From sequence record PP180001: a stretch of DNA of 53,791 nucleotides. One strand, written 5' to 3'. Below the pieces are notes generated by a model. It did no database searches. It had not been told where the DNA came from and saw nothing but the letters and a program-made list of their open reading frames with translations. Below are positions 35,284-53,664 of the stretch, piece after piece. The DNA comes from Escherichia phage mEp010. Within the stretch, counting starts at the first letter, position 1. Every line of letters starts with the position of its first letter. The translations under genes were made by a program, and so were the position numbers.

Positions 35284-35311
35284 CCCCGGCGCAATGCCGG
35301 GGATTTTTTTT
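35284..35311 (+). terminator. Rho-independent terminator after major capsid gene
   Basis: CCCCGGCGCAATGCCGGGG hairpin plus T8. Confidence 0.8.
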
Positions 35312-37658: not shown

Positions 37659-38348
37659 GTGACAGTTATGATTCATGTTCGAACAGGACAATTTGCGGTT
37701 GTGGTTGATGGCAGACGTTACGAGTTCAATCCCTGCTTTGCTGCAATGGCTAAGATCGGCAGCGACAGGGAGCTGGTAGAATACTTCGCAACGGTGCACG
37801 GTGGCAGATACCCACAACGTTTGCCAACTGATTCAGACCTCCGCAATCGCATTCTGGCGCGTTGTTATGGTGAACTTGTGCAAACGTCCATCCACGTACT
37901 GAAATGTTGCTCAGAATGCGAAATAGGCCCGTTATTGGGCGAATGCAGCTTTACCCCTTCTGGTAAGTTAAGACTAAAACCTGGATTGATGCCCACCAGC
38001 GACGTTATCACACTGGCGCAACACTGCATGTATCACGGTTTAATTGGTGACGGACCAGATGAGGACACTGGCGAGGAGCAGGAAGGCGACTATAAACAGA
38101 CGTTTGACATCCTTGAATACGTTTACTCCGCCGTTGCTCACCTGGGGTTATCTGAATCTGAAGCATGGGGCATGACAATGACCGGATATAGGGCAGCTGT
38201 ACGCGCTAAAACGCCACCAGACGAAAGAAAAGAGACAGGTAAGCCAAACGTTCATATAAATAAACGTGATTATGATGAGCAAATGGAGGCCGCTAAAAGG
38301 GTGCTGGAATTGATGAAAAAACGCGAGCAAGAAAAAGCCCGGGGTTAG
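37659..38348 (+). CDS. Tail assembly chaperone (putative)
   Basis: Position between major tail and tape measure genes; acidic segment; no frameshift site identified. Confidence 0.4.
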   Translation: MTVMIHVRTGQFAVVVDGRRYEFNPCFAAMAKIGSDRELVEYFATVHGGRYPQRLPTDSDLRNRILARCYGELVQTSIHVLKCCSECEIGPLLGECSFTPSGKLRLKPGLMPTSDVITLAQHCMYHGLIGDGPDEDTGEEQEGDYKQTFDILEYVYSAVAHLGLSESEAWGMTMTGYRAAVRAKTPPDERKETGKPNVHINKRDYDEQMEAAKRVLELMKKREQEKARG

Positions 38349-38388
38349 CCGGGCGTTATATGTCGATGATGCTTTTTGATAGTGCCTA

Positions 38389-39060: not shown

Positions 39061-41409
39061 ATGTCCACCAGTTTAGGTACAATTTATTACGAAGTTGATG
39101 CAAAAACTGGTCAACTTCTGGTCGCTCAGCGACAGGCTGACCAGGCTTTTGACAGTATCGAGCGTGGCGCAAAACGCGCTGACCGCCAGGTGAACACGCT
39201 TAAGACTTCAATCAAAGCACTATCCAGGGTTATTCATCTGTTACTTGCTGCGGAGGCTGTACGCCAGTTTATTGACATGGCGGAGCAAGCAAAAATGCTT
39301 CGCGTAAAAATCAAATTGCTTACAGGTGAAGCGGAGGCAACGGAACGCGTTTTCAATAGACTGAAAGAAATATCAAAAGAAACAGGCCAAAGCCTCAAGG
39401 ATACTGGCGACCTGTGGCAAGGGCTTGCTATATCGCTAAAAAACACATCCGCTACGGAAGGCCAGGTCCTCAACCTGGTTAGCACGCTGCAAAAACTCGG
39501 CAACCTGGGCGGCGTATCTGCGGAACAACTATCAAACTCCATGCGCCAGTTCCGCCAGGCTATTGATGCTGGCGTATTGCAGGCGGAAGAATTTAACTCA
39601 ATACGTGACAACACCCCAACAATCATACAGGAAATGGCCCGACAGATGGGGTTGTCAATGGGTCAGTTCCGCGCTGAAATGCTGGACGGCAAGATCACGG
39701 CTGAAAGGATGCTCAACGCGATCCAGGCCGCCACGCAGGAAACAAACGAGAAGTTTGCGCAGTTGCCGCGCACATCCGGCATGGCCTTCAACGAGCTTAA
39801 AGTTGAGGTGATGGGACTTGTCGAACAGCTAGACGATCTTTTCGGCATATCAGATGGCGTTGTGTCGGCAATAGACTTAATCACTGGTGGCGTTGAGGGA
39901 TTAGGTAAATGCGCAAAATTCGCCGCAACATGTTTCAATACACTAAAAACTGCTGGCAGCGAATTTATCGACATGTTTGACGATGTTGCTGTTAAGGCTG
40001 GCGAGGTGGCGGAAGAAATCATCAGAATGGTAACGCCAATCAAGGCGCTAATGGATGGCTACAAATGGATGAAGGAAATCATTGACAAGCGCAAGGAAGA
40101 GCTAAATAGCAACAACGAGAAGAAATTTGGCCCCACCATTGGCAAATTCATGACGTTTAAGAATGACATCGAAAAAGCTACAGCCGCTTATGATGAGTTC
40201 ATGCAGAAACAGGGTGAGGCTGACGACGGCAAGATCACCGGATTCGATCAGCCAGTTGGTAAACCGAAAAAAGGGAAAAAGGGCAAAAAGGACAAGAAAT
40301 CCGAAGCTGATCGGCTTGGTGATGAAGGTATAAACGTCTCTGACCAGTACAACAAAGACGCCGCCGCTATGCGTAAAGCACTGGAGAACGGCAAGGCCAT
40401 TGACGCTGCGTTTGCTCAGGGCAAAATAACCCTCCTTGAGTACAAGGCCGCGCAAAAGGGGATAGGCAAGGAACTGAAGGACGAATTAGCACAAATCCCG
40501 GTGGAAGAATTGCAAGACAAATGGGCGCACATAGTAAGCCCGATGGATCAGCTTAAGGGCGAAATTGACCCAATAAAACAGGTTCAGAATGAATGGGCAG
40601 TAAGGAAACAAATGCTATTGGACCTGGGCGCTACAGAGGCGCAACAAAGACAGGCACAGTTGGAATACGAACAACAGATCAGAGATCTGAAATGGGAACA
40701 ATGGCAGGCGCAAAGCGACACAAACGGCCTGATTGGAGCGTGCGTCAGCGGCCTGAAAGGTGGCATGGGTAATGCCCTTACCGGACTGCTAAACGGTACT
40801 CAATCGCTAAGTGAGGTTTTCGCCAACCTGGGAAGCAGCATACTCAATACTGTTGGCAATAAACTATCAGAAATTGCCGCAAACTGGATAGCAGATCAGT
40901 TGATGATGGAAACACAAAGCAAGGCCACGCAAGCAAGTACCACGGCTGGCGCGGTAGCGGCACAAGGCCAGATTGCAGCGGCGGCGGCCCCGGCGGCTGC
41001 GGCAACGGCTGCGTCAACTGGTGGTAGCTGGGCTGCGGCTGGTGCTGCGGCGCTTTCTGCGATCATGTCGCTGGCAACGTCAATTTTTGGCGGCGGGCGT
41101 TATAATGGTGGTTCTGTTAATGGTGGTAGTCTGTATCGCGTAGGTGAACACGGGATTCCTGAGCTATTCCAGACGAGCAACGGGCGTCAGTATATGATTC
41201 CTGGCGAGAATGGTAGGGTGATTCCTGGCCGTGATCTCTTCAATGGTGGCGGCATCAATATGCCTGTTAACATCAACGTCCATACCACAAACGGGTTTAG
41301 CGACGAAGACGGTCGCAGACTTGAACAGACTATGGAGCGCGTAGCAATGAAGATGATGGCAAGGGAATCACAACGACCTGGAGGAATGTTGCAACCGCGC
41401 CGCAAATAA
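39061..41409 (+). CDS. Tail tape measure protein
   Basis: 782 aa, coiled-coil rich, Gly/Ala-rich C-terminal region; position. Confidence 0.85.
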   Translation: MSTSLGTIYYEVDAKTGQLLVAQRQADQAFDSIERGAKRADRQVNTLKTSIKALSRVIHLLLAAEAVRQFIDMAEQAKMLRVKIKLLTGEAEATERVFNRLKEISKETGQSLKDTGDLWQGLAISLKNTSATEGQVLNLVSTLQKLGNLGGVSAEQLSNSMRQFRQAIDAGVLQAEEFNSIRDNTPTIIQEMARQMGLSMGQFRAEMLDGKITAERMLNAIQAATQETNEKFAQLPRTSGMAFNELKVEVMGLVEQLDDLFGISDGVVSAIDLITGGVEGLGKCAKFAATCFNTLKTAGSEFIDMFDDVAVKAGEVAEEIIRMVTPIKALMDGYKWMKEIIDKRKEELNSNNEKKFGPTIGKFMTFKNDIEKATAAYDEFMQKQGEADDGKITGFDQPVGKPKKGKKGKKDKKSEADRLGDEGINVSDQYNKDAAAMRKALENGKAIDAAFAQGKITLLEYKAAQKGIGKELKDELAQIPVEELQDKWAHIVSPMDQLKGEIDPIKQVQNEWAVRKQMLLDLGATEAQQRQAQLEYEQQIRDLKWEQWQAQSDTNGLIGACVSGLKGGMGNALTGLLNGTQSLSEVFANLGSSILNTVGNKLSEIAANWIADQLMMETQSKATQASTTAGAVAAQGQIAAAAAPAAAATAASTGGSWAAAGAAALSAIMSLATSIFGGGRYNGGSVNGGSLYRVGEHGIPELFQTSNGRQYMIPGENGRVIPGRDLFNGGGINMPVNINVHTTNGFSDEDGRRLEQTMERVAMKMMARESQRPGGMLQPRRK

Positions 41410-41441
41410 ACAAAAACCCCGGTACAATGCCGGGGTTATCT
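41410..41441. terminator. Bidirectional rho-independent terminator
   Basis: CCCCGG-TACAAT-GCCGGGG hairpin with A-run upstream and T-rich downstream; separates tape measure gene from minus-strand cassette. Confidence 0.7.
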
Positions 41442-41624
41442 TTATTCAATTTCATCATTATTAAATTCGCCGCTTGCATAAAGCTGTAATGCTCTTATCA
41501 GTTCGTCAGCTTGCTTTTTGTTTATTACAATCATCTCGCAGTCGCTAACGATCCATAATCTTCCATCATCTTCAACACTAAGATCAATCCTTCTGCATTC
41601 TTCAGTCTCGTGAATAATCATCAT
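41442..41624 (-). CDS. Hypothetical protein (60 aa, acidic C-terminus)
   Basis: Track ORF; last gene of minus-strand cassette. Confidence 0.5.
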   Translation of the reverse strand: MMIIHETEECRRIDLSVEDDGRLWIVSDCEMIVINKKQADELIRALQLYASGEFNNDEIE

Positions 41625-41662
41625 AAACCTTCATTATGTTATTAATTTACTGAATAAATTTA

Positions 41663-41830
41663 CTAAAATCTTGTATATCCTCTCTCAATTTTCCCTCCGT
41701 GTACACTTCTGGCAAATACCGCGTCAGTATACCTGAAAAATGGACATGTATATGTATCCCCTTTGCTATCCATATATTTTAGCACCCATGCCATGCGTTT
41801 TACGTTGCTTTTGTTTGCCTGATTTTTCAT
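41663..41830 (-). CDS. Hypothetical protein (55 aa)
   Basis: GGAGG SD 10 nt upstream; Met12 of track ORF 41663-41863. Confidence 0.45.
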   Translation of the reverse strand: MKNQANKSNVKRMAWVLKYMDSKGDTYTCPFFRYTDAVFARSVHGGKIERGYTRF

Positions 41831-41849
41831 TTTTATTTTCCTCCGTAAA

Positions 41850-41942
41850 TCACAACCTGCCATTTCTTGCTATGTAGCTGCGAGCAAACATTACCTGCCA
41901 GATGTTCCAGATCTCCCGCCAGGTGAATTTATCGTCATCCAT
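41850..41942 (-). CDS. Possible 30-aa protein (MDDDKFTWREIWNIWQVMFARSYIARNGRL)
   Basis: GAGGTGA SD; 8 nt after upstream stop. Confidence 0.25.
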   Translation of the reverse strand: MDDDKFTWREIWNIWQVMFARSYIARNGRL

Positions 41943-41950
41943 ATTTCACC

Positions 41951-42205
41951 TCATTTATGCGCCCCTTTTACGCCACAGTGGCGGTTGTATTCCAGATGGT
42001 CAATAATTAACCACATCTTTAAATCTTCGCTGAATAACCGCCAATCGGGGTTGATGTCAAATTTATAGCCGTAGCCATCGCGTAATTTTTTGGGGTTGGC
42101 CTCTTTTTTCAGGAAAGAATTTAATAAAGCCTTGCCTTTTTTGATGATCCGTTCCTGTGCGTTTTTCTGTGCTTTCAGGTTTTTGCCAATCGCCACCAAT
42201 TTCAT
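41951..42205 (-). CDS. Hypothetical basic protein (84 aa)
   Basis: Track ORF, 20 nt after upstream gene. Confidence 0.5.
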   Translation of the reverse strand: MKLVAIGKNLKAQKNAQERIIKKGKALLNSFLKKEANPKKLRDGYGYKFDINPDWRLFSEDLKMWLIIDHLEYNRHCGVKGAHK

Positions 42206-42225
42206 AACTCACCCCACGCAATCAA

Positions 42226-42381
42226 TCAGTTGACCACTTTCAGGAAGAAATCACGGTATTCATCTTCTTTTGCATTCATCATGAATTGACCGTATTTGAA
42301 TGCATCATCAAAACCCTTCACAATCGCAACTTCCACCTGTTCGAATGCTTTGTTTAGCATTACCACTACATAGCGTTCCAT
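42226..42381 (-). CDS. Hypothetical protein (51 aa)
   Basis: Met64 of track ORF 42226-42570 with AGGGGG SD; first gene of cassette. Confidence 0.4.
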   Translation of the reverse strand: MERYVVVMLNKAFEQVEVAIVKGFDDAFKYGQFMMNAKEDEYRDFFLKVVN

Positions 42382-42553
42382 ATTGGCCCCCTTTGTTGGT
42401 ACTGCTTTCTCTTCTTGCTTTCTGTATACATCTTGTTGCGTCCTGTGTGAAGCCATTTCGTAAACTGGGTATAATTCTTGTGACGAAGTTATCATTTTTC
42501 GCGTAGAAGCGCGTAAAGATGTATGCAATATGTAACTTATGATGGGGGAAATC

Positions 42554-42907
42554 ATGCCTGAAGTTTTCAAATGGACGCCGCAAAGAAGCTACAGCGTAAA
42601 CACTGAACCAAACGTGTCCGTCGTTAAACTTGGTGACGGTTATGAGCAGCGCCAGGCGAAAGGGATCAACACGTTACTTGATACTTATACCCTGGTTTTC
42701 AAAGGAAGTAGTGCAGGATGCGGTGCAGCCGGAAATGTCGCGCTACAGGTTGACGCATTTTTAAGGGCGCGCGGCGCGGTCGAGGCGTTTTACTGGACTC
42801 CATCGACCGACGGGGTGCAAAGGCTTTTCGTTTGTCGTAGCTGGAGTATGACCAAAGACGGGCCTGTTTGCACGCTAAACGCAACGTTTGAACAAGTTGT
42901 TGGCTAA
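42554..42907 (+). CDS. M: Minor tail protein M
   Basis: Resembles lambda gpM (F.W.P.....SV...V.FGDGY.QR); Met6 of track ORF. Confidence 0.75.
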   Translation: MPEVFKWTPQRSYSVNTEPNVSVVKLGDGYEQRQAKGINTLLDTYTLVFKGSSAGCGAAGNVALQVDAFLRARGAVEAFYWTPSTDGVQRLFVCRSWSMTKDGPVCTLNATFEQVVG

Positions 42908-42921
42908 TGGTGGGGGTTGTT

Positions 42922-43107
42922 ATGTACGGTTTTTGTGTGGTTGATAAGACTGAATCTTTTACATTATTTGCAGACTATGAGATCAACGACCTTGCTGTAA
43001 GAGCTGACAATGGCGATACATGGTATTTGCATGATATGGGTGACGGGTATGTCGGGTGCAGATCCAGGGAGGGTAAGGAGGTTTTATTTTTGGTTGATGG
43101 CGTATAA
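42922..43107 (+). CDS. Hypothetical protein (61 aa) between M and L
   Basis: Met6 of track ORF 42907-43107; GGGGG SD. Confidence 0.45.
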   Translation: MYGFCVVDKTESFTLFADYEINDLAVRADNGDTWYLHDMGDGYVGCRSREGKEVLFLVDGV

Positions 43108-43137
43108 AAACAACCCCGCGCGAAGCGGGGTTTTTCT
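43108..43137. terminator. Bidirectional rho-independent terminator (same hairpin as at 51247-51263, inverted)
   Basis: CCCCGC-GCGAA-GCGGGG hairpin plus TTTTT. Confidence 0.7.
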
Positions 43138-43139
43138 TG

Positions 43140-43277
43140 TCAGTAGTGGATATACAGCAAGCTCATTGGGTGAGCGTGCGCCATGTTGTTTGCTATTGCC
43201 GCCCAGTCCCAATCAGCAGCGTGAATGCCAAATACTATCAGTCCCATTATTATTAGCGCCAAAACTTCTATTTTCAT
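43140..43277 (-). CDS. Possible 45-aa hydrophobic membrane peptide
   Basis: MKIEVLALIIMGLIVFGIHAADWDWAAIANNMAHAHPMSLLYIHY; 10 nt after upstream stop. Confidence 0.3.
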   Translation of the reverse strand: MKIEVLALIIMGLIVFGIHAADWDWAAIANNMAHAHPMSLLYIHY

Positions 43278-43287
43278 AATCTGTCAC

Positions 43288-43536
43288 CTATAAGTTATCA
43301 CGCAGATAATTAACGCCTTTATCAGTGACGAATGAATGATTGACCTGGTTTTCGTCCGTCATGATTATGAATAGCTTTTCCTGTAGGTATTTCGCTTTCG
43401 GGTACAGCGTTAAACAGACCTGGTACAGTATCCCGCGCTCAATCAGCAAATCAATAAATTCGTGCTCATGATAACCGACGAGGCGGGCGGCCTGTTTTAA
43501 CGTGTACACATAATCGCCGTGATTGCGCCGCCCCAT
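43288..43536 (-). CDS. Hypothetical protein (82 aa)
   Basis: Track ORF. Confidence 0.5.
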   Translation of the reverse strand: MGRRNHGDYVYTLKQAARLVGYHEHEFIDLLIERGILYQVCLTLYPKAKYLQEKLFIIMTDENQVNHSFVTDKGVNYLRDNL

Positions 43537-43544
43537 GTTGCCGC

Positions 43545-43895
43545 CTATTTATCGAATGCAGACAAATTGTCGATACAGAAGTCTTTAGCAGCCTTTTCGT
43601 ATTCGCGTTTTGCTTCTGGATTGTCAGCCGGGAAACCTTTTGCGTGTATTTCACCAGGGCAAGATTGATCCATAGAGTCTGCAAAGTTAACATTGGCGTT
43701 GAAGTTAATATCTTTCGGGTTCATCTCTTCCACCTTATCCGGCACTTGGACCGGAGTAATATCAAAATCACGAGCGTTAGACCAACAGCGAAGTAATTCA
43801 CGACCTTCATCACGAGCTGCGACATATGTATCAAACAGCCCCATGCGCTCCCATTCACATTTATCAGTCCATATTTCTAAACTGTATTTTTGCAT
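43545..43895 (-). CDS. Hypothetical protein (116 aa)
   Basis: Track ORF; start codon embedded in recurrent motif GTTTAACAAAATGC. Confidence 0.55.
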   Translation of the reverse strand: MQKYSLEIWTDKCEWERMGLFDTYVAARDEGRELLRCWSNARDFDITPVQVPDKVEEMNPKDINFNANVNFADSMDQSCPGEIHAKGFPADNPEAKREYEKAAKDFCIDNLSAFDK

Positions 43896-43907
43896 TTTGT
43901 TAAACTC

Positions 43908-44063
43908 TCATTTGACAGGTTCGATCCTGTACCCTAAAACTCGTTCGTCTTCAGCGAGTAAAAGCGCGTCAGTAAGTGCCTCGCCTTCATCTTTATACAG
44001 GGCCACAGTCATTTTTCTGCCATCCGCCAGGAATACCGTCAACCTCCACACCTTATCATCCAT
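43908..44063 (-). CDS. Hypothetical protein (51 aa; may start at 44081)
   Basis: GGAGGTG SD before Met26 of track ORF 43908-44138; alternative Met20 lies in recurrent motif. Confidence 0.4.
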   Translation of the reverse strand: MDDKVWRLTVFLADGRKMTVALYKDEGEALTDALLLAEDERVLGYRIEPVK

Positions 44064-44191
44064 ATCACACCTCCGCGCCATTTTGTTAACCCTGCTTCCT
44101 TTTGAGTACAATATACATATTGTAAAAAACGCGATCAACCGTTTTGGTATGATTTGGCGTGACAGCGATCACAAAATGACAAGGTGAAAAA

Positions 44192-44896
44192 ATGCGCAGC
44201 ATACCTACAGAAATGATTATTGATTCCGTCGATGCTGGAGTCGGCGCGGTAATTGACTTGTTTGAATTAGACCTCACGCCCCTGGGTGGCGAGGTTATCC
44301 GCTTCCATTCCGGCGCGAATGGCTATTACGGCCCGGTTATCTGGAAGGGAGTGACTTACAACAGCTACCCTATCGAGGCCACTGGCTTCGAAATGAAAAA
44401 CGAAGGCGTTTACTCGCGCCCGCAAATGGTAGTAGCCAACATTGGCGGGCTAATCACCGGGATGAACAACGATTTTAACGACCTGCGAGGAATGAAGGTT
44501 ACGCGCCGCCAGGTGGAAGTAAAATATCTGGACGCTGTCAACTTCCCCAATGGCAACCCGGATGCAGATCCGTCTATCGAGGCTGTATCTTTTTACGTCG
44601 TTGAGGCGATGAGCGAAGAAACAGCCGACCAGGTGCAATATGAACTTTCAACGCCAATTGATGCCGACAAGGCGGTTATCCCTGGGCGCACAATCCTCGC
44701 TGACGTTTGCCAGTGGCAATACCGGGGCGACGGTTGCGGATACAGTGGCGGCCCTGTAGCTACAGATAAAGACGAATCGACCAGTGATCCAAAACTGGAT
44801 AAATGCAGCCACCGCCTGAGCGGTTGCCGTTTGCGTTTCCCGCACCCCAATCCGTTACCAATTTCATGTTTCCCCGGATCAAGCAAGGTCGGTTAA
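44192..44896 (+). CDS. L: Minor tail protein L
   Basis: Resembles lambda gpL, including Cys cluster CQWQYRGDGCGYSG. Confidence 0.85.
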   Translation: MRSIPTEMIIDSVDAGVGAVIDLFELDLTPLGGEVIRFHSGANGYYGPVIWKGVTYNSYPIEATGFEMKNEGVYSRPQMVVANIGGLITGMNNDFNDLRGMKVTRRQVEVKYLDAVNFPNGNPDADPSIEAVSFYVVEAMSEETADQVQYELSTPIDADKAVIPGRTILADVCQWQYRGDGCGYSGGPVATDKDESTSDPKLDKCSHRLSGCRLRFPHPNPLPISCFPGSSKVG

Positions 44897-44898
44897 TT

Positions 44899-45630
44899 AT
44901 GGCACTTGAAGATAAAATGATTCGCTATGCGGCAGCCCACCCGCGCGAGGAAGTGTGCGGGCTGGTGATAGATAACGATTATTTTTACCCGTGCGCTAAC
45001 GTGTCTGAAACGCCGCACAACAGCTTTAAAATCTCGCCTGACGATTATATCAAAGCTGACGAATTAGGCGTTATAACAGCCGTTTTCCACTCCCATACTG
45101 ACAATTCATTGGTATTGTCAGCACGGGATCGACAACAGCAGGTTATTTCCGGCCTGCCGTGGTTTTTATGCTCCGGTGGCAGGGTTAGAAAATTCCGCCC
45201 GGTAGCGCACCTGTTAGGCCGTAAATTTGAGCACGGGAAAACGGATTGTTACTCGCTTTTCCGTGACGCCTATCACCTTTGCGGCGTGGATCTTCCTAAC
45301 TTTGAGCGCCACGATGGGTGGTGGCTGCGTGGGGAAAACCTGTACATAAAGAACCTGCCATTGAACGGTTTTTTCATGGTTGACGCGCAAAGCATTCAGC
45401 CAGGTGACGTGATTATTCGCCAGCCGTTTAAAGGCGCTGACCCATGCCACGCGATGATTTACCTGGGCGATAACACTGTTTTGCATCATGACAATGCCGG
45501 ACTGTTAAGCCGCCGAGAGCAAATGCGGCCCGCGTATGTTCGACAGACCAATTCAATATGGAGATCTGACAAATGCTCAAATTTAGACTTACGGGCAATC
45601 TTCGAAGATATTACGGCAAGGTGTGTTTAA
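44899..45630 (+). CDS. K: Tail assembly protein K (JAB/MPN plus NlpC/P60-like)
   Basis: Resembles lambda gpK; Met33 of track ORF. Confidence 0.8.
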   Translation: MALEDKMIRYAAAHPREEVCGLVIDNDYFYPCANVSETPHNSFKISPDDYIKADELGVITAVFHSHTDNSLVLSARDRQQQVISGLPWFLCSGGRVRKFRPVAHLLGRKFEHGKTDCYSLFRDAYHLCGVDLPNFERHDGWWLRGENLYIKNLPLNGFFMVDAQSIQPGDVIIRQPFKGADPCHAMIYLGDNTVLHHDNAGLLSRREQMRPAYVRQTNSIWRSDKCSNLDLRAIFEDITARCV

Positions 45631-46103
45631 ACGTTGATACGCCAGCACAAGGACTTCGCTTATTGACCGCACAGAATCAGGAGTTCAAGAAGGCTTTTTT
45701 AAGCACACCATTGCGCTTACGAATTGCCGGGAAAGATTATGACGAAAAGACCGCGCCAGCAGCGGTTAACAGTAAATACCCTGACGGGACTACCGTCATT
45801 GTTGCGCCAGTGGTGGAAGGCGGTATTGCAGGGATTGGCGTTGTAGGCTGGATTTTGATCGGTGTTTCGGTTGTTAGCGTTGCGTTCTCGATCTTCATGT
45901 CACGCAACATGAAGATAAAAACATCAGCAGAAAGCGCACAAGATAACACCATATCTAACAACACATACACCAGCGTTGAAAACAAGGTTGGCCAGGGTAG
46001 ACCAGTGCCGATCCTGTTGGGTGAAATGAAAATAGGTTCAAACGTCGGATCGTTAGGCATAGACACAAGTAATAACAAAGACGCCTTAGACGTTGTAAGT
46101 TAA
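45573..46103 (+). CDS. I: Tail assembly protein I
   Basis: Resembles lambda gpI, Gly/Ala/Ile-rich hydrophobic centre; overlaps K as in lambda. Confidence 0.75.
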   Translation: MLKFRLTGNLRRYYGKVCLNVDTPAQGLRLLTAQNQEFKKAFLSTPLRLRIAGKDYDEKTAPAAVNSKYPDGTTVIVAPVVEGGIAGIGVVGWILIGVSVVSVAFSIFMSRNMKIKTSAESAQDNTISNNTYTSVENKVGQGRPVPILLGEMKIGSNVGSLGIDTSNNKDALDVVS

Positions 46104-46116
46104 CAGGAGAAAAGCC

Positions 46117-49100
46117 ATGAGTAGCGGCGGCGGCAAAGCCAAAACACCAACATTATTAAACGATAACCTGTATCATAAACAGTTTTATCGTGTTTTAGAC
46201 ATTCTCAGTGAGGGGCCAATATACGGCCCTGTAAACCAGAAAGCGCCATTAAACAGCGTAATGCTTAATGACACGCCTATCACTGACGCCAACGGTAATA
46301 CATCAGTCCCCGGCGTTAGCGTGGCGTGGCGCAATGGTACGGCTGACCAGTCACCAATCAACGGCTTCAACGCCATTGAATCAACCGTTATTGTCAACGC
46401 AAAAGTAACTCACGATACACCAATAATCAGGACCATTTCAGATCCCAACGTTAACCGCGTAAGGCTGAATCTTGGCGTCGATTCTCTGGTTCAGTCAGAT
46501 GATAAGGGCAATCAGTACAATACATCCGTCACGTTGATGGTTGATGTTAAGCCTTCATCTTCAACAACGTGGTCACTGGTTAAAGATATTCACATCGGCC
46601 CGGGTAAACAAAGCGGCGAGTACCTCGAAGCGCACATCATCAAAGCGCCGGATGAAAAACCGTTTGATATTCGCGTTCGTCGCGTAACGCCGGACAGCAC
46701 GGGAGATCTTCTTCACAATGATACCAGGTGGAGCAGTTACAGCGAGATAATCGACGATAATTTATCTTATCCTCACACCGCTGTAGCAGGCGCGGTAATT
46801 GACCACGATCAGTATACTGACACGCCGACACGCACCTATCACATGCGTGGTCTGATTGTTGATGTCCCTGATAACTACGACCCGGAAACGCGCACGTACT
46901 CAGGTTTATGGCTTGGTGGCTTTAAAAAGGCGTACACCAATAACCCTGCATGGCTTTTCCGGTATCTGGTTAAAAATGAACGCTTCGGGCTTGCCCGCCA
47001 CGCTGGTTACATCGACATTGATGACGGAGCACTGTATACGCTTTCTCAATACTGCGACCAGTTGGTAAACGACGGTTACGGCGGCTTTGAACCTCGCATG
47101 ACGCTTAATGCTTACATCACTGAGCAAATGAGCGCCCGCGACCTACTGGATAATATTGCAGGCATGTTCCGTGGTATCGCGTTATGGGACGGGCAGCGCC
47201 TTACGGTGATGATTGATGCACCGCAGGATCCAATTGCCACCATCACAAATGCCAATGTCGTTGATGGCGCGTTTACTCGTTCAAGTATCGCCCGCGCAGA
47301 ATCTTACAACGCCGTGATCGTGTCATGGACTGACCCGGAAAACGGTTGGGAACAATCAAAAGAATACGTGGCAGATGACGAACTGATCGCCCGCGATGGT
47401 TACAACGAAACCACGTTGGAGGCTTTCGGTTGCACGTCACGCGGGCAGGCGTACCGCGCTGGCAAATGGCTGATAGAAACAGCAAAGCGCGAACCATCAA
47501 AATTCACGTTTAAAATGGCCCGTGACGCAATTCACTTCACACCAGGGGATATTATCGAGATACTCGACAATAACCGCGCTGGCGCTCGTTTGGGCGGTCG
47601 TATCGTGGCGAATAACGGGAAGGTTATAACTGTAGACAAGGTTGATTCTGACCTGGTGGCGGCTGGTGACACTATCAGCTTGCTGGATAGCGACGGCAAG
47701 TTTAAAAAACATCAGATCACTGGAGTTAACGGAAACAATATTACCCTTGCAGCCGCGCCAGCATGGATTCGCAACGGAACCGTATTTGCTGTTTCTACTG
47801 AATCCGCAAAACCTGTTCTGTGTCGAATCACCAGCGTAGCAGAAACCGAAAATAACAGCGTGTACACCATCGAGGCTGCGCAGCATGATACGCACAAACA
47901 GGCCGTAGTTGATGAAGGCGCGATCTTCGAGGTAAACAACGACACGCTTAATCACTTCCGCGTGCCGAACATTGAAAACCTGAAGGTGTTAAATGTTGGT
48001 TCTGAAACTGTTCAATGTCGCGCTACATGGGAAACACAGACGACAACGCATCGCCTGACCTTTGAGATCCGCGTATATAACGCGGAAGGCCGAGTGGTGG
48101 CAGCTTATGAAACAACGAATTACCGCTATGATTTTTATGGCCTCGATGCTGGCAGCTACACGCTTGGTATTCGCGGTCGTAATGACACTGGCATGAAGGG
48201 GGCGGAAAGTATTGTGGACCTAGTTATTGGTGCGCCAGCGGCCCCGATTGGAGTTAATTGGGTTCCCGGTGTTTTCCAGGCAACAGTGTACCCAATCAGC
48301 AAAACAACCCTGACCACTGATACGGCATATGAGTTCTACTTCTCAGGTGAAAACCAGATCACAGACCCATCAAAAGTAACCACGCTGGCGCAGTTCACCG
48401 GGCGCGGCTACCAATGGACGTTTGGCGGCATGAATACGGGCCACACATATTACGTTTATGTGCGCACACGCAATGCTTTTGGCGTGTCTGACTTTGTGGA
48501 GGCATCAGGTAAGCCTACAGAGAATTTTGATGAAATCAGTGACTACGTCACAAAAGACGTGATTAATTCAGAACAGTTTAAAGGGATGATTGGCGACATT
48601 AAAGATCTAGGCGACCGCGCAGACCTTATCGAAAGCGCTACAAATGACCTTAAAAACGCTACTGACAGCCTCAAAACTGCAACTGATAACCTGACAAACA
48701 TCACTGAAGATTTGAGGACTGACACGGACGGCCTAATCACAGAAACTGGGGCCATAAAAGCTGATACGGACACACTGAAAAAAGAAACGGAAGATCTTTA
48801 TAAAAAGGTTGGGGAAAACACCGATGGTATTGGACAACATGAGGTAAGAATTGACTCGCTAGAGGTATCCAGCGAAAGAATCGACAGCGAACTGGCGCAA
48901 GCAAAAGCAAGCCTGCAAAACGCATCTTTGGCGCTAATCAATAACTCGCTTGCACAGACCAACACGCGGGTTACGCTCACTGCACAGTACAAGAAAGGGA
49001 AATCAGAAACCAACGCGCAAATTGACCGCATTGACAACGTTATTGCTGAAGAGAAAAAGGCTACAGCTGAATCACTGAAAACCATCACTGCAGAAATGAA

Positions 49101-51240
49101 CACGATGGATTCTAACCTCAAAAGTCAGATCTCCAGTGTGGAACGTGCAGTGGCTGACGAAACAAGTGCCCGCGCTGAAGCAATTAACAGCGTGAACGCA
49201 TCAATAAGCAATCTCGACAAGAAAACCGACGCCAGCGTGAACCGCCTTGATCAAGCCATCGCAGACGAAACAAGCGCCCGCTCACAGGCTATCAGCGGCG
49301 TGAATGCGTCAATAAGCAATCTTGAAAGCAAAACAGACGCCAGCGTTTCACGTCTTGATAAGGCAATATCTGACGAAACGCAGGCAAGAAGCGACGCAAT
49401 AACAGAGGTCAAAGCTGATTTAACAACGCTCGAAAGTAACACAAACGCCAGCGTTAAACGCTTAGACCAGGCTATTGCTGACGAATCAAGCGCCCGTGCT
49501 CAGGCTATATCTGGAATCAGCGCCGAACTTGGCAAGGTTGAAAATAACGTTGACAAGAACAGCGACGAAATAAGCCAGACCAAAGCAAGCCTGCAAAACG
49601 CCTCGATTGCGCTGATTAACAACTCAATCGCTCAAACCAACACGCGTGTTACGCTTACGGCCCAATACAAGAAAGGACGCAGCGAAACCAACGCGCAAAT
49701 TGACCGCATTGACAACGTTATTGCTGAAGAGAAAAAGGCTACAGCGGAAGCAGTTAGCGTGGTGAAAGCATCGATCACGGATCTTGATAAGAAGACTGAC
49801 GCGAGTGTTTCCCGTCTCGACAAGGCTATCGCTGACGAAACCAGCGCACGCAGCGAGGCGGTAAGCGACGTTAACGCAAGCGTTTCAGCGCTCGACAAGA
49901 AAACCGACGCCAGCGTTAAACGCCTGGACCAGGCAATTGCAGATGAGACAAGCGCAAGAACTGAAGCTATCAGCGGTGTGAACGCAAGCATTAACACGCT
50001 TGAAAGCAACACTGAATCTGAAGTTAACAGAATTGACCAGGCAATCGCTGACGAGGCCAGCGCCCGCGCTCAGGCCATCAGCGGCGTGAACGCATCAATT
50101 TCCACGCTTGATAGCAAGGTTACAAGCAACGTGACCCGCATCGACAAGGCCATTGCAGACGAAACGAAGGCACGCACTGACGCAATAAGTAGCCTTAATT
50201 CATCGCTTACCAGTACGATTAACTCGAAGGTGTCTGAGGTATCAACGGCGCTTTCTACACATGAAGCATCAAGCGCGGAAAAATTCGGCCAGATCTCAGC
50301 GTCTTTCGAATCCGTAAACTCAAGTATTACAGAATGGTCGCAGGCCATGACAACCGCTGACGATGCATTGTCAACCAAAATTGATCAGTTAACAGTAACC
50401 GTTAACGGGAACACAACGGCGATAGAGACAACATCGAAAGCGTTAACAGACTTCAAAGGCAATGTTGATGCGTCGTACTCTATCAAGCTGGCAACCGACA
50501 ACAACGGCATGAAGTACGCGACAGGTATGTCGCTTGGCCTTACTGGTGACGGCACTAACTTTCAATCGCAGTGTATTTTCCTGGTTGACAGGTTCGCGCT
50601 AATGACTGCGGCAAACGGCACATATCAAACGCCTTTCTATATCGAAAATGGTGCAATGTATGTACGGGAAGCGTTTATTAAAAACGGTTCAATCGACAAT
50701 GCAAAAATAGGCAATGTCATAACGTCCTACAACTGGAACGGCAACGATCAAGGGTGGGCGATAGTTAAAGATGGCTGGGCTGTATTTAACAACGTTACAG
50801 TACGCGGCACGGTATACGCTAATGCTGGGGTGTTTAACGGTACTGTTTACGCAAATGACGGTAAATTCTCTGGAACAGTGGAGGCAAATTCATTTATCGG
50901 TGATGTTGCAAATATGTACACAGGATCTGACGTTAGCAGGTCAAACAATGGTGTACTTCAAAAAGTAATTACATATACAGACACAACAGCAGCAGCCCAC
51001 AGGAGACATATTTGCGTTATGGCAAACGTTAAAGGTAACGGTGCTTGCACAGTAAACATTAACGGATCAGAAAAGGGCTTGTCTGTAAATGATAATGAAC
51101 GGCTTATCATGCACTCTGCGGCGGTATATGGACAGAACGTTACAGTAGTGATTAGCATATCCGCTCAGAATGGTAGGGGTGCGTATATATTCTCACCGAC
51201 CGTTATAGTATCGCGCGGCTCTGGTTCATTCTCTGGATAA
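46117..51240 (+). CDS. J: Central tail fibre / host specificity protein J (expanded, 1707 aa)
   Basis: N-terminal and C-terminal thirds resemble lambda gpJ; ~540-aa internal coiled-coil repeat insertion. Confidence 0.85.
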   Translation: MSSGGGKAKTPTLLNDNLYHKQFYRVLDILSEGPIYGPVNQKAPLNSVMLNDTPITDANGNTSVPGVSVAWRNGTADQSPINGFNAIESTVIVNAKVTHDTPIIRTISDPNVNRVRLNLGVDSLVQSDDKGNQYNTSVTLMVDVKPSSSTTWSLVKDIHIGPGKQSGEYLEAHIIKAPDEKPFDIRVRRVTPDSTGDLLHNDTRWSSYSEIIDDNLSYPHTAVAGAVIDHDQYTDTPTRTYHMRGLIVDVPDNYDPETRTYSGLWLGGFKKAYTNNPAWLFRYLVKNERFGLARHAGYIDIDDGALYTLSQYCDQLVNDGYGGFEPRMTLNAYITEQMSARDLLDNIAGMFRGIALWDGQRLTVMIDAPQDPIATITNANVVDGAFTRSSIARAESYNAVIVSWTDPENGWEQSKEYVADDELIARDGYNETTLEAFGCTSRGQAYRAGKWLIETAKREPSKFTFKMARDAIHFTPGDIIEILDNNRAGARLGGRIVANNGKVITVDKVDSDLVAAGDTISLLDSDGKFKKHQITGVNGNNITLAAAPAWIRNGTVFAVSTESAKPVLCRITSVAETENNSVYTIEAAQHDTHKQAVVDEGAIFEVNNDTLNHFRVPNIENLKVLNVGSETVQCRATWETQTTTHRLTFEIRVYNAEGRVVAAYETTNYRYDFYGLDAGSYTLGIRGRNDTGMKGAESIVDLVIGAPAAPIGVNWVPGVFQATVYPISKTTLTTDTAYEFYFSGENQITDPSKVTTLAQFTGRGYQWTFGGMNTGHTYYVYVRTRNAFGVSDFVEASGKPTENFDEISDYVTKDVINSEQFKGMIGDIKDLGDRADLIESATNDLKNATDSLKTATDNLTNITEDLRTDTDGLITETGAIKADTDTLKKETEDLYKKVGENTDGIGQHEVRIDSLEVSSERIDSELAQAKASLQNASLALINNSLAQTNTRVTLTAQYKKGKSETNAQIDRIDNVIAEEKKATAESLKTITAEMNTMDSNLKSQISSVERAVADETSARAEAINSVNASISNLDKKTDASVNRLDQAIADETSARSQAISGVNASISNLESKTDASVSRLDKAISDETQARSDAITEVKADLTTLESNTNASVKRLDQAIADESSARAQAISGISAELGKVENNVDKNSDEISQTKASLQNASIALINNSIAQTNTRVTLTAQYKKGRSETNAQIDRIDNVIAEEKKATAEAVSVVKASITDLDKKTDASVSRLDKAIADETSARSEAVSDVNASVSALDKKTDASVKRLDQAIADETSARTEAISGVNASINTLESNTESEVNRIDQAIADEASARAQAISGVNASISTLDSKVTSNVTRIDKAIADETKARTDAISSLNSSLTSTINSKVSEVSTALSTHEASSAEKFGQISASFESVNSSITEWSQAMTTADDALSTKIDQLTVTVNGNTTAIETTSKALTDFKGNVDASYSIKLATDNNGMKYATGMSLGLTGDGTNFQSQCIFLVDRFALMTAANGTYQTPFYIENGAMYVREAFIKNGSIDNAKIGNVITSYNWNGNDQGWAIVKDGWAVFNNVTVRGTVYANAGVFNGTVYANDGKFSGTVEANSFIGDVANMYTGSDVSRSNNGVLQKVITYTDTTAAAHRRHICVMANVKGNGACTVNINGSEKGLSVNDNERLIMHSAAVYGQNVTVVISISAQNGRGAYIFSPTVIVSRGSGSFSG
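48880..50250 (+). repeat. In-frame tandem repeats inside J (about ten ~36-aa/~110-bp units; plus a ~170-bp block duplicated 678 bp apart at ~48904 and ~49582)
   Basis: Units of form DASV.RLD.AIADETSAR..AISGVNASIS.L.SKT; antisense track ORFs here are repeat artefacts. Confidence 0.7.
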
Positions 51241-51270
51241 ACAAAACCCCGCTTCGCGCGGGGTTTTCTT
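51241..51270. terminator. Bidirectional rho-independent terminator between J and the lipoprotein gene
   Basis: CCCCGCTTCGCGCGGGG hairpin plus TTTTCTTT. Confidence 0.75.
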
Positions 51271-51519
51271 TTAGTAGTTAGCTACACAATTAGAAGGGCT
51301 ACCGATGCGGCGCATATTGTGATCGAGTTCATGACACCATTGACCAGTATAAGGCAGTTTTTCAGTGTCATAGACAAGATGACCACTACCATCATAAACA
51401 ACATCCTGTGGAATTACTCCGCTATTCGGCAGGTTATGCAATGCAGCCTCTTTGTCAACAGCACAACCAGTAAGAGCTACAGCCGCAGCGAACAAAACCA
51501 CTTTGAATACGTTTTTCAT
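51271..51519 (-). CDS. Small lipoprotein (moron; candidate superinfection-exclusion or outer-membrane factor)
   Basis: 82 aa; signal peptide with lipobox LTGC; opposite strand between J and side tail fibre gene, the slot where lambdoid phages carry lom/cor-type morons. Confidence 0.65.
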   Translation of the reverse strand: MKNVFKVVLFAAAVALTGCAVDKEAALHNLPNSGVIPQDVVYDGSGHLVYDTEKLPYTGQWCHELDHNMRRIGSPSNCVANY

Positions 51520-51696
51520 CTTTGAATCCTCATTCTTGTTGGTTCATCCGGTTTATCCGGTGACTTGAATATCCGACAAAACCACATTTCGTATATTGAT
51601 ATAAATCAACAAATACATTTTGTGTAAGCAGAAAATGCAACATAGATCACAAAATGGTAGAATTATTCCGTTAATTAACATAATGGAGTCATTGCG

Positions 51697-53664
51697 ATGA
51701 TTTACACAACTGGAACAATTGCCATCAACGGCAACACTGTTACAGGCACGGGGACAAACTTTTCCGCGCCGCTTTCCCTCATCCGTGTAGGGTGCACGCT
51801 CATTGCCATCGGCAATCCTGTACAGATCTTTACCATTACGGAAATCAAAAACGGTACTGAACTATCAGTGACGCCAGCGGCTAACCCTGCGATCCCTGCC
51901 GGAACAAAATTTAGTATTCTGCTTTCTGATTCGATCTCAGTTGATGGGCTTGCCCAGGACGTAGCTGAAACGTTGCGCTACTATCAGAGTAAAGAAACAG
52001 AAGTAGCTGAGGCGCTTGAATGGAGTCAGGACCATATCGCAGACAAGATTGGGCTTGGTGCTGAACACCGAAACTGGCCTGATTGCAACGATCCTACTGG
52101 TTATATAGGTTTTTGTCGTGCTGTAGAAGCTGAATCACGTAACTTTCCGTCGATTGCATCTGGCGAAGTTTACTTGGTGGGTTGGCTTGCGCGTGGTGAC
52201 AATGCCGTTATTAACGGCTGTTTCGTTGGTACTATAAGCCTTTCACTGTACACATACAGATATAACCCAACAGATGGTACGAAAGTATGGACACGACACG
52301 CAAGAAAAGATGAGGTAAGCAGATTGACCCAGAGTGTATCTGAAACTGCTTTGCGGGCCGCAGGAGGGAAGCAAAAATTTGTTCTGTGGGATGGGGGTGA
52401 TGGGAATACTCTATCTTGGGGTGTTTGGGATGATGATGTTAGTCAATGGAGTCCGTTAGCAATAGCGCAGGGCGGTACTGGTGCGCTTGATGCTTTAACT
52501 GCTAGGAACAATCTAGGGGTGGGCGTGGGTGACAGTCCTCAATTCAGGGATGTGACTCTATCACGCTCAACAGATAACTCATCTGGCTGGGTATCTGGTG
52601 GTATACAAAGATCCGTACTTTTGGGATCTGACGGTACTACACGTGCAGAAGGTTTATTTTATGCAGAATACCAACAAGGTGAACCAACACAAATAACGCT
52701 TGCTGTACATGGAGTTAACGAAGGTTATGGCTATTTATGCTTCAATACAAGGGGGCAGATTTTAGCAGAGACAGCCATTTTAAGATCAACATACAATAAT
52801 CCACTTCTTATTAAAAGCAGCACACCAACAATCTGCTTCAATGAAGTGGAACGCCCTGACGGATCACCTTTTTACAACTTAATTTTTGATAGTGGTAACT
52901 GGCGCATTCAGAAAAACGGTGATGGGTATAATGGTGAATATGTAATAAGCTACAACTATACTTTTGATGAAATGGAGCTTCCCAACCTGCTTACAAAGGA
53001 TATTAAATTAAAATCAAATAATAGCGAAAAATCATTGGGGATTAAAGTAGAAGATAGCACAAATGTTAGCTCGTCAATAAGAGTATTTGGTTACGAAGCA
53101 GAAGGAAGGGAATCAGTTTTTGAGTTCGGTTATCTTAATAAAGAAACATCTGAATACGATAAATACGGCTTTTACTGCCAGCTTAACACTGACAATTCAA
53201 TTCATTTTCAGGTTAACGGCGCTGTAAATTGTACAACCTTAAATCAATCATGTGACCGCGACCTGAAAGACAACATCCAGGTTATAGATGATGCAACTGA
53301 AGCCATCCGCAAAATGAACGGGTACACCTACACGCTTAAGGAAAACGGCCTGCCTTACGCTGGTGTTATCGCTCAAGAGGTCATGGAGGCGCTGCCGGAG
53401 GCTGTAGGATCGTTTACTCATTACGGTAAAGCATTGCAAGGCCCGACCATTGACGGCAACGAGCTACGCGAAGAAACGCGTTACCTCAATGTTGACTATG
53501 CTGCAGTGACTGGCTTACTTGTCCAGGTGGCACGCGAAACAGATAATCGCGTCACCGAACTGGAAGAGGAAAACGCCAGCCTACGCGCCAACATTGCCGC
53601 AATGGATGAGCGGATCGCAAAACTTGAAGCGCTTGTCCTACAGTTAACCGGAAGCGAAAAATAA
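51697..53664 (+). CDS. Side tail fibre with C-terminal intramolecular chaperone (peptidase S74-type) domain
   Basis: 655 aa; C-terminal CDRDLKDNIQ...GVIAQEVMEALPEAV then coiled coil, typical self-cleaving chaperone module. Confidence 0.75.
   Translation: MIYTTGTIAINGNTVTGTGTNFSAPLSLIRVGCTLIAIGNPVQIFTITEIKNGTELSVTPAANPAIPAGTKFSILLSDSISVDGLAQDVAETLRYYQSKETEVAEALEWSQDHIADKIGLGAEHRNWPDCNDPTGYIGFCRAVEAESRNFPSIASGEVYLVGWLARGDNAVINGCFVGTISLSLYTYRYNPTDGTKVWTRHARKDEVSRLTQSVSETALRAAGGKQKFVLWDGGDGNTLSWGVWDDDVSQWSPLAIAQGGTGALDALTARNNLGVGVGDSPQFRDVTLSRSTDNSSGWVSGGIQRSVLLGSDGTTRAEGLFYAEYQQGEPTQITLAVHGVNEGYGYLCFNTRGQILAETAILRSTYNNPLLIKSSTPTICFNEVERPDGSPFYNLIFDSGNWRIQKNGDGYNGEYVISYNYTFDEMELPNLLTKDIKLKSNNSEKSLGIKVEDSTNVSSSIRVFGYEAEGRESVFEFGYLNKETSEYDKYGFYCQLNTDNSIHFQVNGAVNCTTLNQSCDRDLKDNIQVIDDATEAIRKMNGYTYTLKENGLPYAGVIAQEVMEALPEAVGSFTHYGKALQGPTIDGNELREETRYLNVDYAAVTGLLVQVARETDNRVTELEEENASLRANIAAMDERIAKLEALVLQLTGSEK

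Follow-up and report, generated by a model that had tools for sequence, protein, structure and literature searches.

Bidirectional intrinsic terminators of bacteria and phages have a GC-rich perfect stem between an A-tract and a T-tract, and Ju, Li and Liu (Nat Microbiol, 2019) are said to have found them to be pervasive in E. coli. Lambdoid 'boundary' or 'linker' sequences are short conserved elements placed exactly where the homology of relatives ends; the concept is reportedly found in the modular theory of Susskind and Botstein, in Juhala et al. (2000) and in Clark et al. (2001). Bidirectional terminators are also the subject of a further source (bioRxiv 10.1101/2022.10.23.513370). The morons (defined in PMC3594210) of the HK97 and HK022 late operons lie between tail genes; they are small, are lower in GC content, have a terminator of their own and vary in presence/absence. 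Inversion of a hairpin loop by template switching is a documented class of mutation, bacterial hairpins included (PMC8794818), and the pattern in which the stem is kept and the loop inverted has been described repeatedly (PMC8794818, PMC8604942, PMC2903610), the 'minute inversions' of chloroplasts being of this kind.

The DNA analysed here (53,791 nt, PP180001; the window) is the complete genome of a temperate coliphage of the mEpimmI group (mEp021-like). An initial annotation had drawn attention to two pairs of similar hairpins, and its account of the letters was accurate: CCCCGCGCGAAGCGGGG at 43114-43130 is the exact reverse complement of CCCCGCTTCGCGCGGGG at 51247-51263, and the hairpins at 35284-35302 and 41417-41435 mismatch at two of 19 positions. 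We call the latter pair family A and the former family B, and the two family-B sites the M-locus (43.1 kb) and the J-locus (51.2 kb). The family-B pair ranks top among the 121 inverted repeats of the window (I1, 43106-43141 / 51236-51271, 36 nt, 86%). With up to two mismatches allowed, the 17-mer is found in the window at these two sites only, and in none of 100 shuffles; a crude model of 11 terminators with S-only 6-bp stems gives an expected number of 0.0017 for pairs like family B and 0.011 for the family-A pair. The similarity within both pairs is not due to chance, and the family-B copies make up a two-copy terminator family particular to this lineage. Outside its loop each hairpin is perfectly palindromic, so the 'inverted' relation of the family-B copies is defined by five loop nucleotides alone. 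The hairpins and their neighbours are listed in Table 1.

Table 1. Hairpins, accessory cassettes and adjacent genes in the window
Feature	Coordinates	Strand	Remarks
Hairpin A, predicted unidirectional terminator or attenuator 3' of the major capsid gene	35284..35302	+	U8 on + only
Third, unrelated, bidirectional terminator-like hairpin	38337..38354	both	GCCCGG…CCGGGC; another convergent junction
Hairpin A, predicted bidirectional	41417..41435	both	Between tape-measure gene stop (41409) and – strand cassette stop (41442)
Accessory cassette	41442..42555	–	ORFs of 60 aa, 66 aa, 84 aa (ParE-like domain) and ~51-109 aa
66-aa ORF	42907..43107	+	Stop 6 nt upstream of hairpin B; co-segregates with GCGAA-state hairpin
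Hairpin B, M-locus	43114..43130 (with A/T tracts ~43106-43141)	both	Stem CCCCGC/GCGGGG, loop GCGAA on +
Accessory cassette	43140..44081	–	45-aa membrane peptide (43140-43277), 82-aa KilAC/ANT-domain protein (43288-43536), 116-aa ORF, 57-aa ORF
Central tail fibre / host-specificity protein J	46117..51240	+	Stop 6 nt upstream of J-locus hairpin
Hairpin B, J-locus	51247..51263 (with tracts ~51236-51271)	both	Stem as at M-locus, loop TTCGC on +
82-aa lipoprotein, 'type-C Lpp' superinfection-exclusion gene	51271..51519	–	Lipobox LTGC; matches phrog_12984 (annotated lipoprotein)

The four hairpins of the two families have perfect stems of 8-10 bp, with folding energies of –16.6 to –20.2 kcal/mol and z scores of –3.4 to –5.5 against shuffles. 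The M-locus hairpin folds with –17.2 kcal/mol on the plus and –16.6 on the minus strand, the J-locus hairpin with –18.1 and –20.2, and the hairpin at 41417 with –17.5 and –18.2. A U-rich tract follows the stem on the plus strand in all four, and on the minus strand at 41417, 43114 and 51247 but not at 35284. The stop-codon pairs 41409/41442, 43107/43140 and 51240/51271 bracket the three convergent-junction hairpins at 6-9 nt. As the initial annotation stated, the family-B hairpins adjoin the 3' ends of minus-strand cassettes, at stops 43140 (the 45-aa membrane peptide) and 51271 (the 82-aa lipoprotein); they equally adjoin the plus-strand stops 43107 and 51240, at 6 nt each.

The depositors of mEp021, mEp044, mEp013, mEp515 and mEp554 predicted terminators at matching sites: T15 of mEp044 and TERM_11/12 (both strands) of mEp021 at the M-locus, T17 (mEp044), T20 (mEp013) and T20 (mEp554) at the J-locus, T13 of mEp044 at 41417, and TERM_7 (mEp021) and T10 (mEp044) at 35284. 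A known structured RNA is ruled out as the identity of the hairpins, the Rfam search having returned no match anywhere in the window and hence none overlapping them. Fold and placement lead us to infer a compact bidirectional Rho-independent terminator at each of 41417, 43114 and 51247, between a plus-strand tail gene and a minus-strand accessory cassette. In structure these do not differ from the described bidirectional terminators; here, however, they are predicted, and the three lie within a late structural operon whose expression must continue past them.

Read on the minus strand, such hairpins would end cassette transcripts, for example the mRNA of the superinfection-exclusion lipoprotein, and keep them from running antisense into the tail genes; read on the plus strand, they would insulate the prophage. 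Strong plus-strand terminators among the tail genes would have to be read through, or transcription re-initiated behind them. The mEpimmI group possesses N-like and Q-like antitermination (PMC11893012), and during lytic growth plus-strand read-through would presumably proceed via a Q-like system of the phage, an idea whose sole basis is the published system of the group. Termination in either direction, combined with antiterminated read-through, is how we would read these elements.

The initial annotation had taken all four hairpins for moron boundaries. This agrees with what is found at 41417, 43114 and 51247, which bound variable, lower-GC minus-strand cassettes, but not at 35284: that hairpin sits between the co-directional plus-strand head genes 34211-35263 and 35314-35715 and has its U-tract on the plus strand only, so there is no minus-strand cassette boundary there. 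The cassettes have a GC content of 0.35-0.46 (0.35-0.43 for 41442..42555, 0.43-0.46 for 43140..44081) against ~0.50 in the tail genes, and their content, that of 41442..42555 included, differs among all six GenBank relatives and across IMG/VR contigs. ORF45, which specifies the 45-aa peptide, is coding, with variable sites distributed 8/4/22 over the codon positions. The 45-aa peptide and the 82-aa lipoprotein are not paralogues, showing no likeness beyond the last two codons and the stop, and the two 82-aa ORFs (43288, 51271) are likewise unrelated, one being a KilAC-domain protein and the other a lipoprotein. Phage exclusion has been shown experimentally for Lpp010, a homologue of this lipoprotein, expressed from a plasmid (PMC11893012). 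A superinfection-exclusion gene in one cassette is a further likeness to the morons of temperate phages. Unlike the morons of HK97 and HK022, the cassettes here are multi-gene and backward-facing, and their candidate promoters are consensus-level matches only (9/12, e.g. 44138-44110 on the minus strand), with total matches below shuffle expectation. The terminator does not always travel with the inserted unit either: at the J-locus, hairpin and lipoprotein segregate together, but the M-locus GCGAA hairpin segregates with the resident upstream plus-strand gene.

Comparison of about 35 distinct related genomes places homology breakpoints at the hairpins or within a few nucleotides of their stems. 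Breakpoints fall at 38357/8, 41443/4, 43156/7 and 51236/7. Homology to four relatives stops at 38354-38357/8, beside the third hairpin; at the M-locus at least six downstream contexts begin directly after GCGGGGTT; at the terminator behind the tape-measure gene (TMP; 41417) at least five begin a few nucleotides past the stem; and at the J-locus at least two unrelated families of J C-termini meet the A-tract that precedes the hairpin. Breakpoint chaining was greedy and is unreliable in the repetitive part of J (49.1-50.2 kb), where we interpret no breakpoints. The hairpins are sharp mosaic junctions at which unrelated neighbouring sequence is swapped. The proposal that cassettes entered as modular units through shared boundary elements is therefore borne out as far as varying cassette content and breakpoints at the stems go; it fails for 35284, which bounds no cassette, and for the M-locus GCGAA hairpin, which does not go with its cassette. 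Compared with the lambdoid linkers, the element here is a predicted functional terminator palindrome, and it may promote exchange or merely mark junctions that selection tolerates. That the stems are preferred joints for cassette exchange, with crossovers or template switches in the 6-10 bp arms and the loop as a heritable mark of the hairpin donor (plus-strand gene or minus-strand cassette), strikes us as rather unlikely; if true, it would explain why the GCGAA RNA reading always faces the co-segregating gene and why TTCGC is so strictly linked to ORF45 at 43.1 kb.

The loop itself is polymorphic. At the M-locus it is GCGAA in the window, mEp044 and MagusPhagus, TTCGC in mEp021, mEp515 and mEp013, and TTCGT in mEp554, with 25 GCGAA (G-state) and 10 TTCGC (T-state) copies among 35 distinct sequences; GCGAA is the majority and probably also the ancestral state. 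All 21 J-locus copies have the TTCGC orientation. Between the window and the relative L089, the M-locus flanks are identical at 113 of 120 positions and the stems throughout, while the loop agrees at 0/5 positions as written and at 5/5 as its reverse complement. Window-type genomes and L100 have both immediate flank haplotypes in common (TAAAAACAA … TTTTTCTTGT) and opposite loops, and the two loop states differ by at most 0.9 kcal/mol. The inverted orientation claimed for the family-B hairpins is thus a property of the loop, variable among closely related phages whose flanks are colinear.

TTCGC at the M-locus is confined to the ORF45 downstream context (10/13 there versus 0/22 elsewhere). In L309 an upstream haplotype of the G type is joined to TTCGC and ORF45, so the loop can move with the downstream cassette, which fits stem-arm recombination as well as flipping in situ. 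The trees of the upstream and downstream M-locus flanks conflict with each other, and therefore do not resolve the number and direction of loop events. Inversion of the hairpin loop, or crossing-over within the stem arms, is the best explanation of the dimorphism: one or a few inversions would have produced it, and we infer as the mutational mechanism either a template switch within the replicating hairpin or, to the same effect, crossovers in both stem arms. The perfect stem, the same-length reverse-complement loop and the unchanged flanks match the reported loop inversions. The present case differs in that it concerns a phage bidirectional terminator, that it is a stable population dimorphism tied to one neighbouring cassette, and that stem-arm crossovers offer an alternative route; moreover, this loop has 5 nt and no self-complementarity at all, whereas those reported in rRNA are mostly 4 nt and partly self-complementary (PMC8794818). 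Loop flipping is not a general trait of these terminators. It was seen in none of ~20 TMP terminators, in none of the 22 M-locus sequences outside the ORF45 context and, as a single candidate, in one of 32 capsid terminators (35284), where CATCACG of mEp554 reads as the majority CGCGATG reverse-complemented, with one substitution. Such scarcity makes a programmed or high-frequency switch unlikely.

How the two family-B copies came to be related can be read in other ways. One is that the terminator, whose reading in the transcript of its 'owner' gene is CCCCGC-GCGAA-GCGGGG-Un, is a portable 3'-end module that different genes acquired in opposite orientations. The owners would be the plus-strand 66-aa ORF (43.1 kb), the minus-strand lipoprotein (51.2 kb) and, in TTCGC-state relatives, the minus-strand ORF45 (43.1 kb), with cassettes joined by crossovers in common stem arms and the loop recording the hairpin donor. 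Several observations speak for it. The GCGAA-state hairpin stays with the 66-aa ORF across at least six downstream contexts, the J-locus hairpin stays with the lipoprotein across at least two J C-terminus families, even at 62% lipoprotein identity (L136), and at both loci the GCGAA reading faces the co-segregating gene. The strict tie of M-locus TTCGC to ORF45 (10 versus 0) and the L309 combination point the same way, as do the 24-25 of 32 matches, in direct orientation (p<0.0005), between the mEp013-type 3' flank of ORF45 and that of the lipoprotein. However, the cases of 'ownership' number only three, window-type genomes, which have ORF45, carry GCGAA with flanks identical to those of the TTCGC genome L100, which would need a crossover within an 8-10 bp arm, and the 17-mer occurs without any cassette gene in 36 unrelated viral contigs. 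Flank similarity bears on direct versus inverted homology in mEp013-type copies only, the flanks being uninformative elsewhere. We regard such a module as possible, though clearly not the favoured reading. Ectopic gene conversion, in which the 51.2-kb terminator, either that of the genome itself or that of a co-infecting phage, would have been the direct-orientation template for the M-locus TTCGC, could account for mEp013, L087 and L098, whose M-locus copies have the hairpin and 17 downstream nt (TTTTCTTTTAGTAGTTA) in common with the J-locus copy. It sits poorly with mEp021 and mEp515, which have TTCGC at the M-locus yet no family-B hairpin at the J-locus, and with L089 and L100, whose TTCGC copies bear the window-type rather than the J-type flank; nor do the loci co-vary in mEp044 (ATCGC at J, GCGAA at M) or in L133 (TTTGC at J, with GCGAA in the M-locus copy on its contig, L105). 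On balance we think conversion unlikely.

Independent origin is a still poorer fit. Strong terminators might converge on C4G-type stems and stable loops; CCCCG does begin four of the ~11 intergenic hairpins of the window, and the 17-mer also occurs in unrelated high-GC phages, followed in about half of them by T-tracts. But only ~0.002 pairs are expected, flank identity reaches 17 nt past the stem in some genomes, and a scan of 596 Gb of genomes gave at least 120 matches to the 17-mer, near the ~69 expected from uniform composition; among the matches listed, all were in non-enterobacterial taxa, mostly of high GC. The 36 viral contigs with the 17-mer have no genes in common with the window. 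A generic host or phage terminator motif, which would have undercut the modular idea, is ruled out by this near-chance frequency and by the sporadic, unrelated viral matches, and convergence seems to us very improbable. The initial annotation had also suggested that inverted repeats spaced 8 kb apart could recombine, with inversion isoforms between 43.1 and 51.3 kb as the product; the segment concerned is the L-K-I-J block of tail genes. The family-B pair is indeed the longest inverted repeat in the window, but its exact identity spans just 17-23 bp, the repeats are direct rather than inverted in TTCGC/TTCGC genomes, and inverted tail genes would presumably be antisense to late transcription. 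All 14 IMG/VR contigs with both loci and all five GenBank genomes have one relative gene orientation, at a spacing of ~7.4-9.0 kb, the L–J segment being inverted in 0 of these 19, which rules out the 43.1-51.3 kb inversion there and leaves isoforms with next to no plausibility. The account that we prefer, and consider quite probable as a whole, joins bidirectional terminators, loop inversion by template switch or stem-arm crossover, and hairpins as mosaic junctions.

The inverted-hairpin pattern is an ordinary feature together with a minor evolutionary curiosity. A palindromic terminator will always be scored as a direct repeat as well as an inverted one, so 'inverted reuse' that rests on a 5-nt loop is no evidence for inversion of the element or for recombination-active repeats. 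For annotation, the tail region of mEpimmI, a recently defined group of gut coliphages, can be described as blocks of late genes alternating with backward-facing accessory cassettes, each convergent junction being closed by one compact, predicted two-way terminator. For evolution, the M-locus offers a clean natural example of loop-inversion dimorphism in a predicted phage terminator, and the placement of mosaic junctions within a few bases of terminator stems bears on how morons swap.

Complete coliphage genomes of the mEp021 or 'mEpimmI' group align colinearly with the window and share its ends, its best genome match being mEp044 (91.6% identity), with further matches to mEp013, mEp021, mEp515, mEp554 and MagusPhagus. 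N-like and Q-like antitermination are present in this group (PMC11893012). The hairpin region is a + strand head-tail module broken up by four short – strand cassettes (Table), with a GC content of 0.35-0.46 in the cassettes versus ~0.50 in the tail genes. Cassette products are small accessory proteins, one with a ParE-like domain and one with a KilAC/ANT-domain, as well as a conserved 45-aa membrane peptide (ORF45, 43140-43277; 8/4/22 variable sites per codon position) and a lipoprotein. The latter is a 'type-C Lpp', whose residues K2, A11, Q38 and V40 are those listed for the mEp010 'ancestral' type-C Lpp (PMC11893012). Exclusion of superinfecting LamB-using phages has been demonstrated for its homologue Lpp010 (PMC11893012).

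Table. Genes, cassettes, repeated motif and homology breakpoints in the window
Feature	Position	Strand	Remark
Capsid gene	34211-35263	+	head-tail module
Tail tube gene		+	between capsid and tape measure in module order
Tape measure gene	39061-41409	+	head-tail module
M-like gene, then L/K/I		+	after tape measure, before J
J	46117-51240	+	head-tail module
Fibre gene	51697-53664	+	head-tail module
Cassette	38389-38805	–	
Cassette	41442-42555	–	
Cassette	43140-44081	–	
Cassette	51271-51519	–	82-aa lipoprotein
TT[AT]ACAAAATG sites	38983-39022, 42454-42464, 43893-43903, 44079-44089, 44116-44126, 51606-51627, 51675-51685		
Further TT[AT]ACAAAATG sites	1361, 5322, 6981, 8839, 9683, 17343, 17411		
Breakpoint	38357/8		versus four relatives
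Breakpoint	41443/4		versus two relatives
Breakpoints	43156/7 and 51236/7		versus MagusPhagus

As the initial annotation had it, the hairpin at 43114-43130 (CCCCGCGCGAAGCGGGG; the M-locus) is the exact reverse complement of that at 51247-51263 (CCCCGCTTCGCGCGGGG; the J-locus), and two positions separate the hairpin at 35284-35302 from that at 41417-41435. The former pair ranks first among the 121 inverted repeats of the window (36 nt, 86%); allowing up to two mismatches, the 17-mer has these two sites only in the window and none in 100 shuffles. Under a crude model of 11 terminators with S-only 6-bp stems, the chance expectation is ~0.002 for pairs of this type and ~0.01 for the other pair. Because each hairpin is a perfect palindrome outside the loop, the 'inverted' relationship rests on 5 nt.

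The hairpins at 41417, 43114 and 51247 lie 6-9 nt from each of two convergent stop codons, fold with –16.6 to –20.2 kcal/mol and carry U-tracts on both strands; they are predicted bidirectional intrinsic terminators. For the 35284 hairpin the U-tract is confined to the + strand and + strand head genes lie on both sides, so this hairpin does not mark a cassette boundary, and is predicted to be the usual post-capsid terminator or attenuator. Depositors of related genomes have predicted terminators at equivalent positions, and the mEp021 equivalent of the 43.1-kb hairpin is annotated as a terminator on both strands. The window as a whole gave no Rfam match.

The exact 17-mer is found in 76 stretches among 2.9 million viral contigs. 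M- or J-loci of the mEpimmI group account for 41, and the other 36 matches are in unrelated, mostly high-GC contigs without genes common to the window. In 596 Gb of genomes there are at least 120 matches versus ~69 expected from uniform composition, with no enterobacterial record among the matches listed. The hairpins are thus not generic elements of host and phage genomes. The suggestion that they act as recombination-active inverted repeats spaced 8 kb apart finds no support: the L–J block has the same orientation in 14/14 IMG/VR contigs and five GenBank genomes.

What does stand is the association with cassette boundaries, as homology breakpoints fall at or near the hairpins (Table). At least six unrelated downstream sequences start immediately 3' of GCGGGGTT at the M-locus, at least five downstream contexts start a few nt past the stem of the tape-measure terminator, and at least two unrelated families of J C-terminus are joined at the A-tract of the J-locus. 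Whether a hairpin is part of its cassette depends on the locus: the J-locus hairpin remains linked to the lipoprotein gene even at 62% lipoprotein identity, while the M-locus G-state (defined below) segregates with the upstream + strand gene. These few cases are suggestive of GCGAA, in the RNA sense, facing whichever gene the hairpin co-segregates with, a pattern that we treat as a rival reading.

On either side of the M-locus, all six GenBank relatives align colinearly with the window, and they have its stem in common. The window, mEp044 and MagusPhagus have the loop GCGAA, whereas it is TTCGC in mEp021, mEp515 and mEp013 (the last with one stem mismatch) and TTCGT in mEp554. Sampling via the adjoining 66-aa ORF in IMG/VR and with a loop-agnostic pattern in metagenomes yielded 35 distinct sequences: the G-state (GCGAA or GAGAA) accounts for 25 and the T-state (TTCGC, TTCGT or TTCTC) for 10. 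The window and locus L089 agree at 113/120 flank positions and throughout the stems, and their loops, which match at 0/5 positions as they stand, match at 5/5 once one of them is reverse-complemented; locus L100 carries the opposite loop to window-type sequences despite having both immediate flank haplotypes in common with them. The two states differ by at most 0.9 kcal/mol. 'Inverted orientation' therefore describes the window correctly as sequence, but not as inversion of an element: it is a 5-nt loop flip, dimorphic among relatives. Within the group the arrangement of the window predominates, and in about a quarter of genomes the two copies have the same orientation. The terminator is not found at this junction in every case: four more remote relatives of the 66-aa ORF (L117-L120 in IMG/VR, 69-70% identical) have no such hairpin within the ~90 nt inspected around the ORF 3' end.

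A single loop inversion would be the economical origin of the dimorphism, since with flank divergence of ~6% a set of five coordinated substitutions is not credible. The pattern fits documented cases in which short-range template switching inverts a hairpin loop (PMC8794818; also PMC8604942) and matches a chloroplast case (PMC2903610). From loop inversion we cannot separate crossovers inside both stem arms, given that the T-state is confined to the ORF45 downstream context (10/13 there, 0/22 elsewhere; Fisher p about 2e-6, a statistic that ignores shared ancestry), that in locus L309 TTCGC and ORF45 follow an upstream haplotype of G-type, and that upstream and downstream flank trees conflict. 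The G-state is probably ancestral at the M-locus, as it is present on deep branches and with every one of the six downstream contexts. Intragenomic conversion from the J-locus copy would explain why mEp013-type M-locus copies have 17 nt of downstream flank in common with that copy in direct orientation (24-25/32 flank positions match, p<0.0005), yet mEp021 and mEp515 combine TTCGC at the M-locus with a different terminator after J, and loop variants at the two loci do not co-vary; as a general source it is unlikely.

The J-locus loop has the TTCGC orientation in 21/21 copies (five from GenBank or the window, 16 IMG/VR loci found via the lipoprotein), with minor variants ATCGC and TTTGC. Flipping does not extend to these terminators in general: the tape-measure terminator shows none, and the capsid terminator one candidate in 32. 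In this candidate, mEp554 (L006 1497-1517, versus window 35283-35303), the centre CATCACG differs by one substitution from the majority CGCGATG when this is reverse-complemented, a possible second, independent flip.

Other repeats were also seen. The motif TT[AT]ACAAAATG is over-represented (17 sites versus 4.8±2.1 in shuffles) and present in all divergent intergenic regions next to the 5' ends of the – strand cassettes; at 38.98-39.02 kb it forms a 12-bp inverted pair, TTATACAAAATG…CATTTTGTATAA. Its ATG is a non-start codon at most sites, and the cassettes may have the motif in common as an operator or promoter element. A 34-nt direct repeat (88% identity; ATTTTTCGCGTAG[C/A]A[A/G]CGCGTAAA[C/G]ATGTAT[T/G]CA, with a small internal stem-loop) may be a common 5'-UTR or regulatory element: one copy (42494-42527) stops 11 nt short of the M-like tail gene ATG (42539), and that at 30172-30205 overlaps the first listed ATG (30197) of a 463-aa ORF, ending ~23 nt before a downstream ATG. 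Near both window ends lies a 24-nt direct repeat (162-185 and 53722-53745, 96% identity; TGTGTACCAAAT[A/T]GTGACCAAATT), the right-hand copy just 3' of a terminal hairpin (53694-53717) kept in all relatives. J contains a 108-nt periodic array (seven copies, 49105-50123) and a duplication spaced 678 nt (48904-49074 / 49582-49752, 82-97% identical); J of the relatives is 4.2-5.5 kb long, with the difference in this region, and the repeats may thus drive changes in central fibre length. In mEp021 (L002 13295-13861) and mEp515 (L004 12379-12945) a 572-nt insertion separates tail genes I and J, annotated as an HNH endonuclease in mEp021 and absent from the window (46108-46121); mEp515 also has an HNH gene within a – strand cassette.

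The hairpins are ordinary predicted bidirectional terminators, already annotated, which sit where moron-like cassettes join their neighbours in a known phage group. To this our analysis adds the demonstration, at the level of sequence comparison, that the two orientations reflect dimorphism of a 5-nt loop and that the stems are where mosaic junctions fall.
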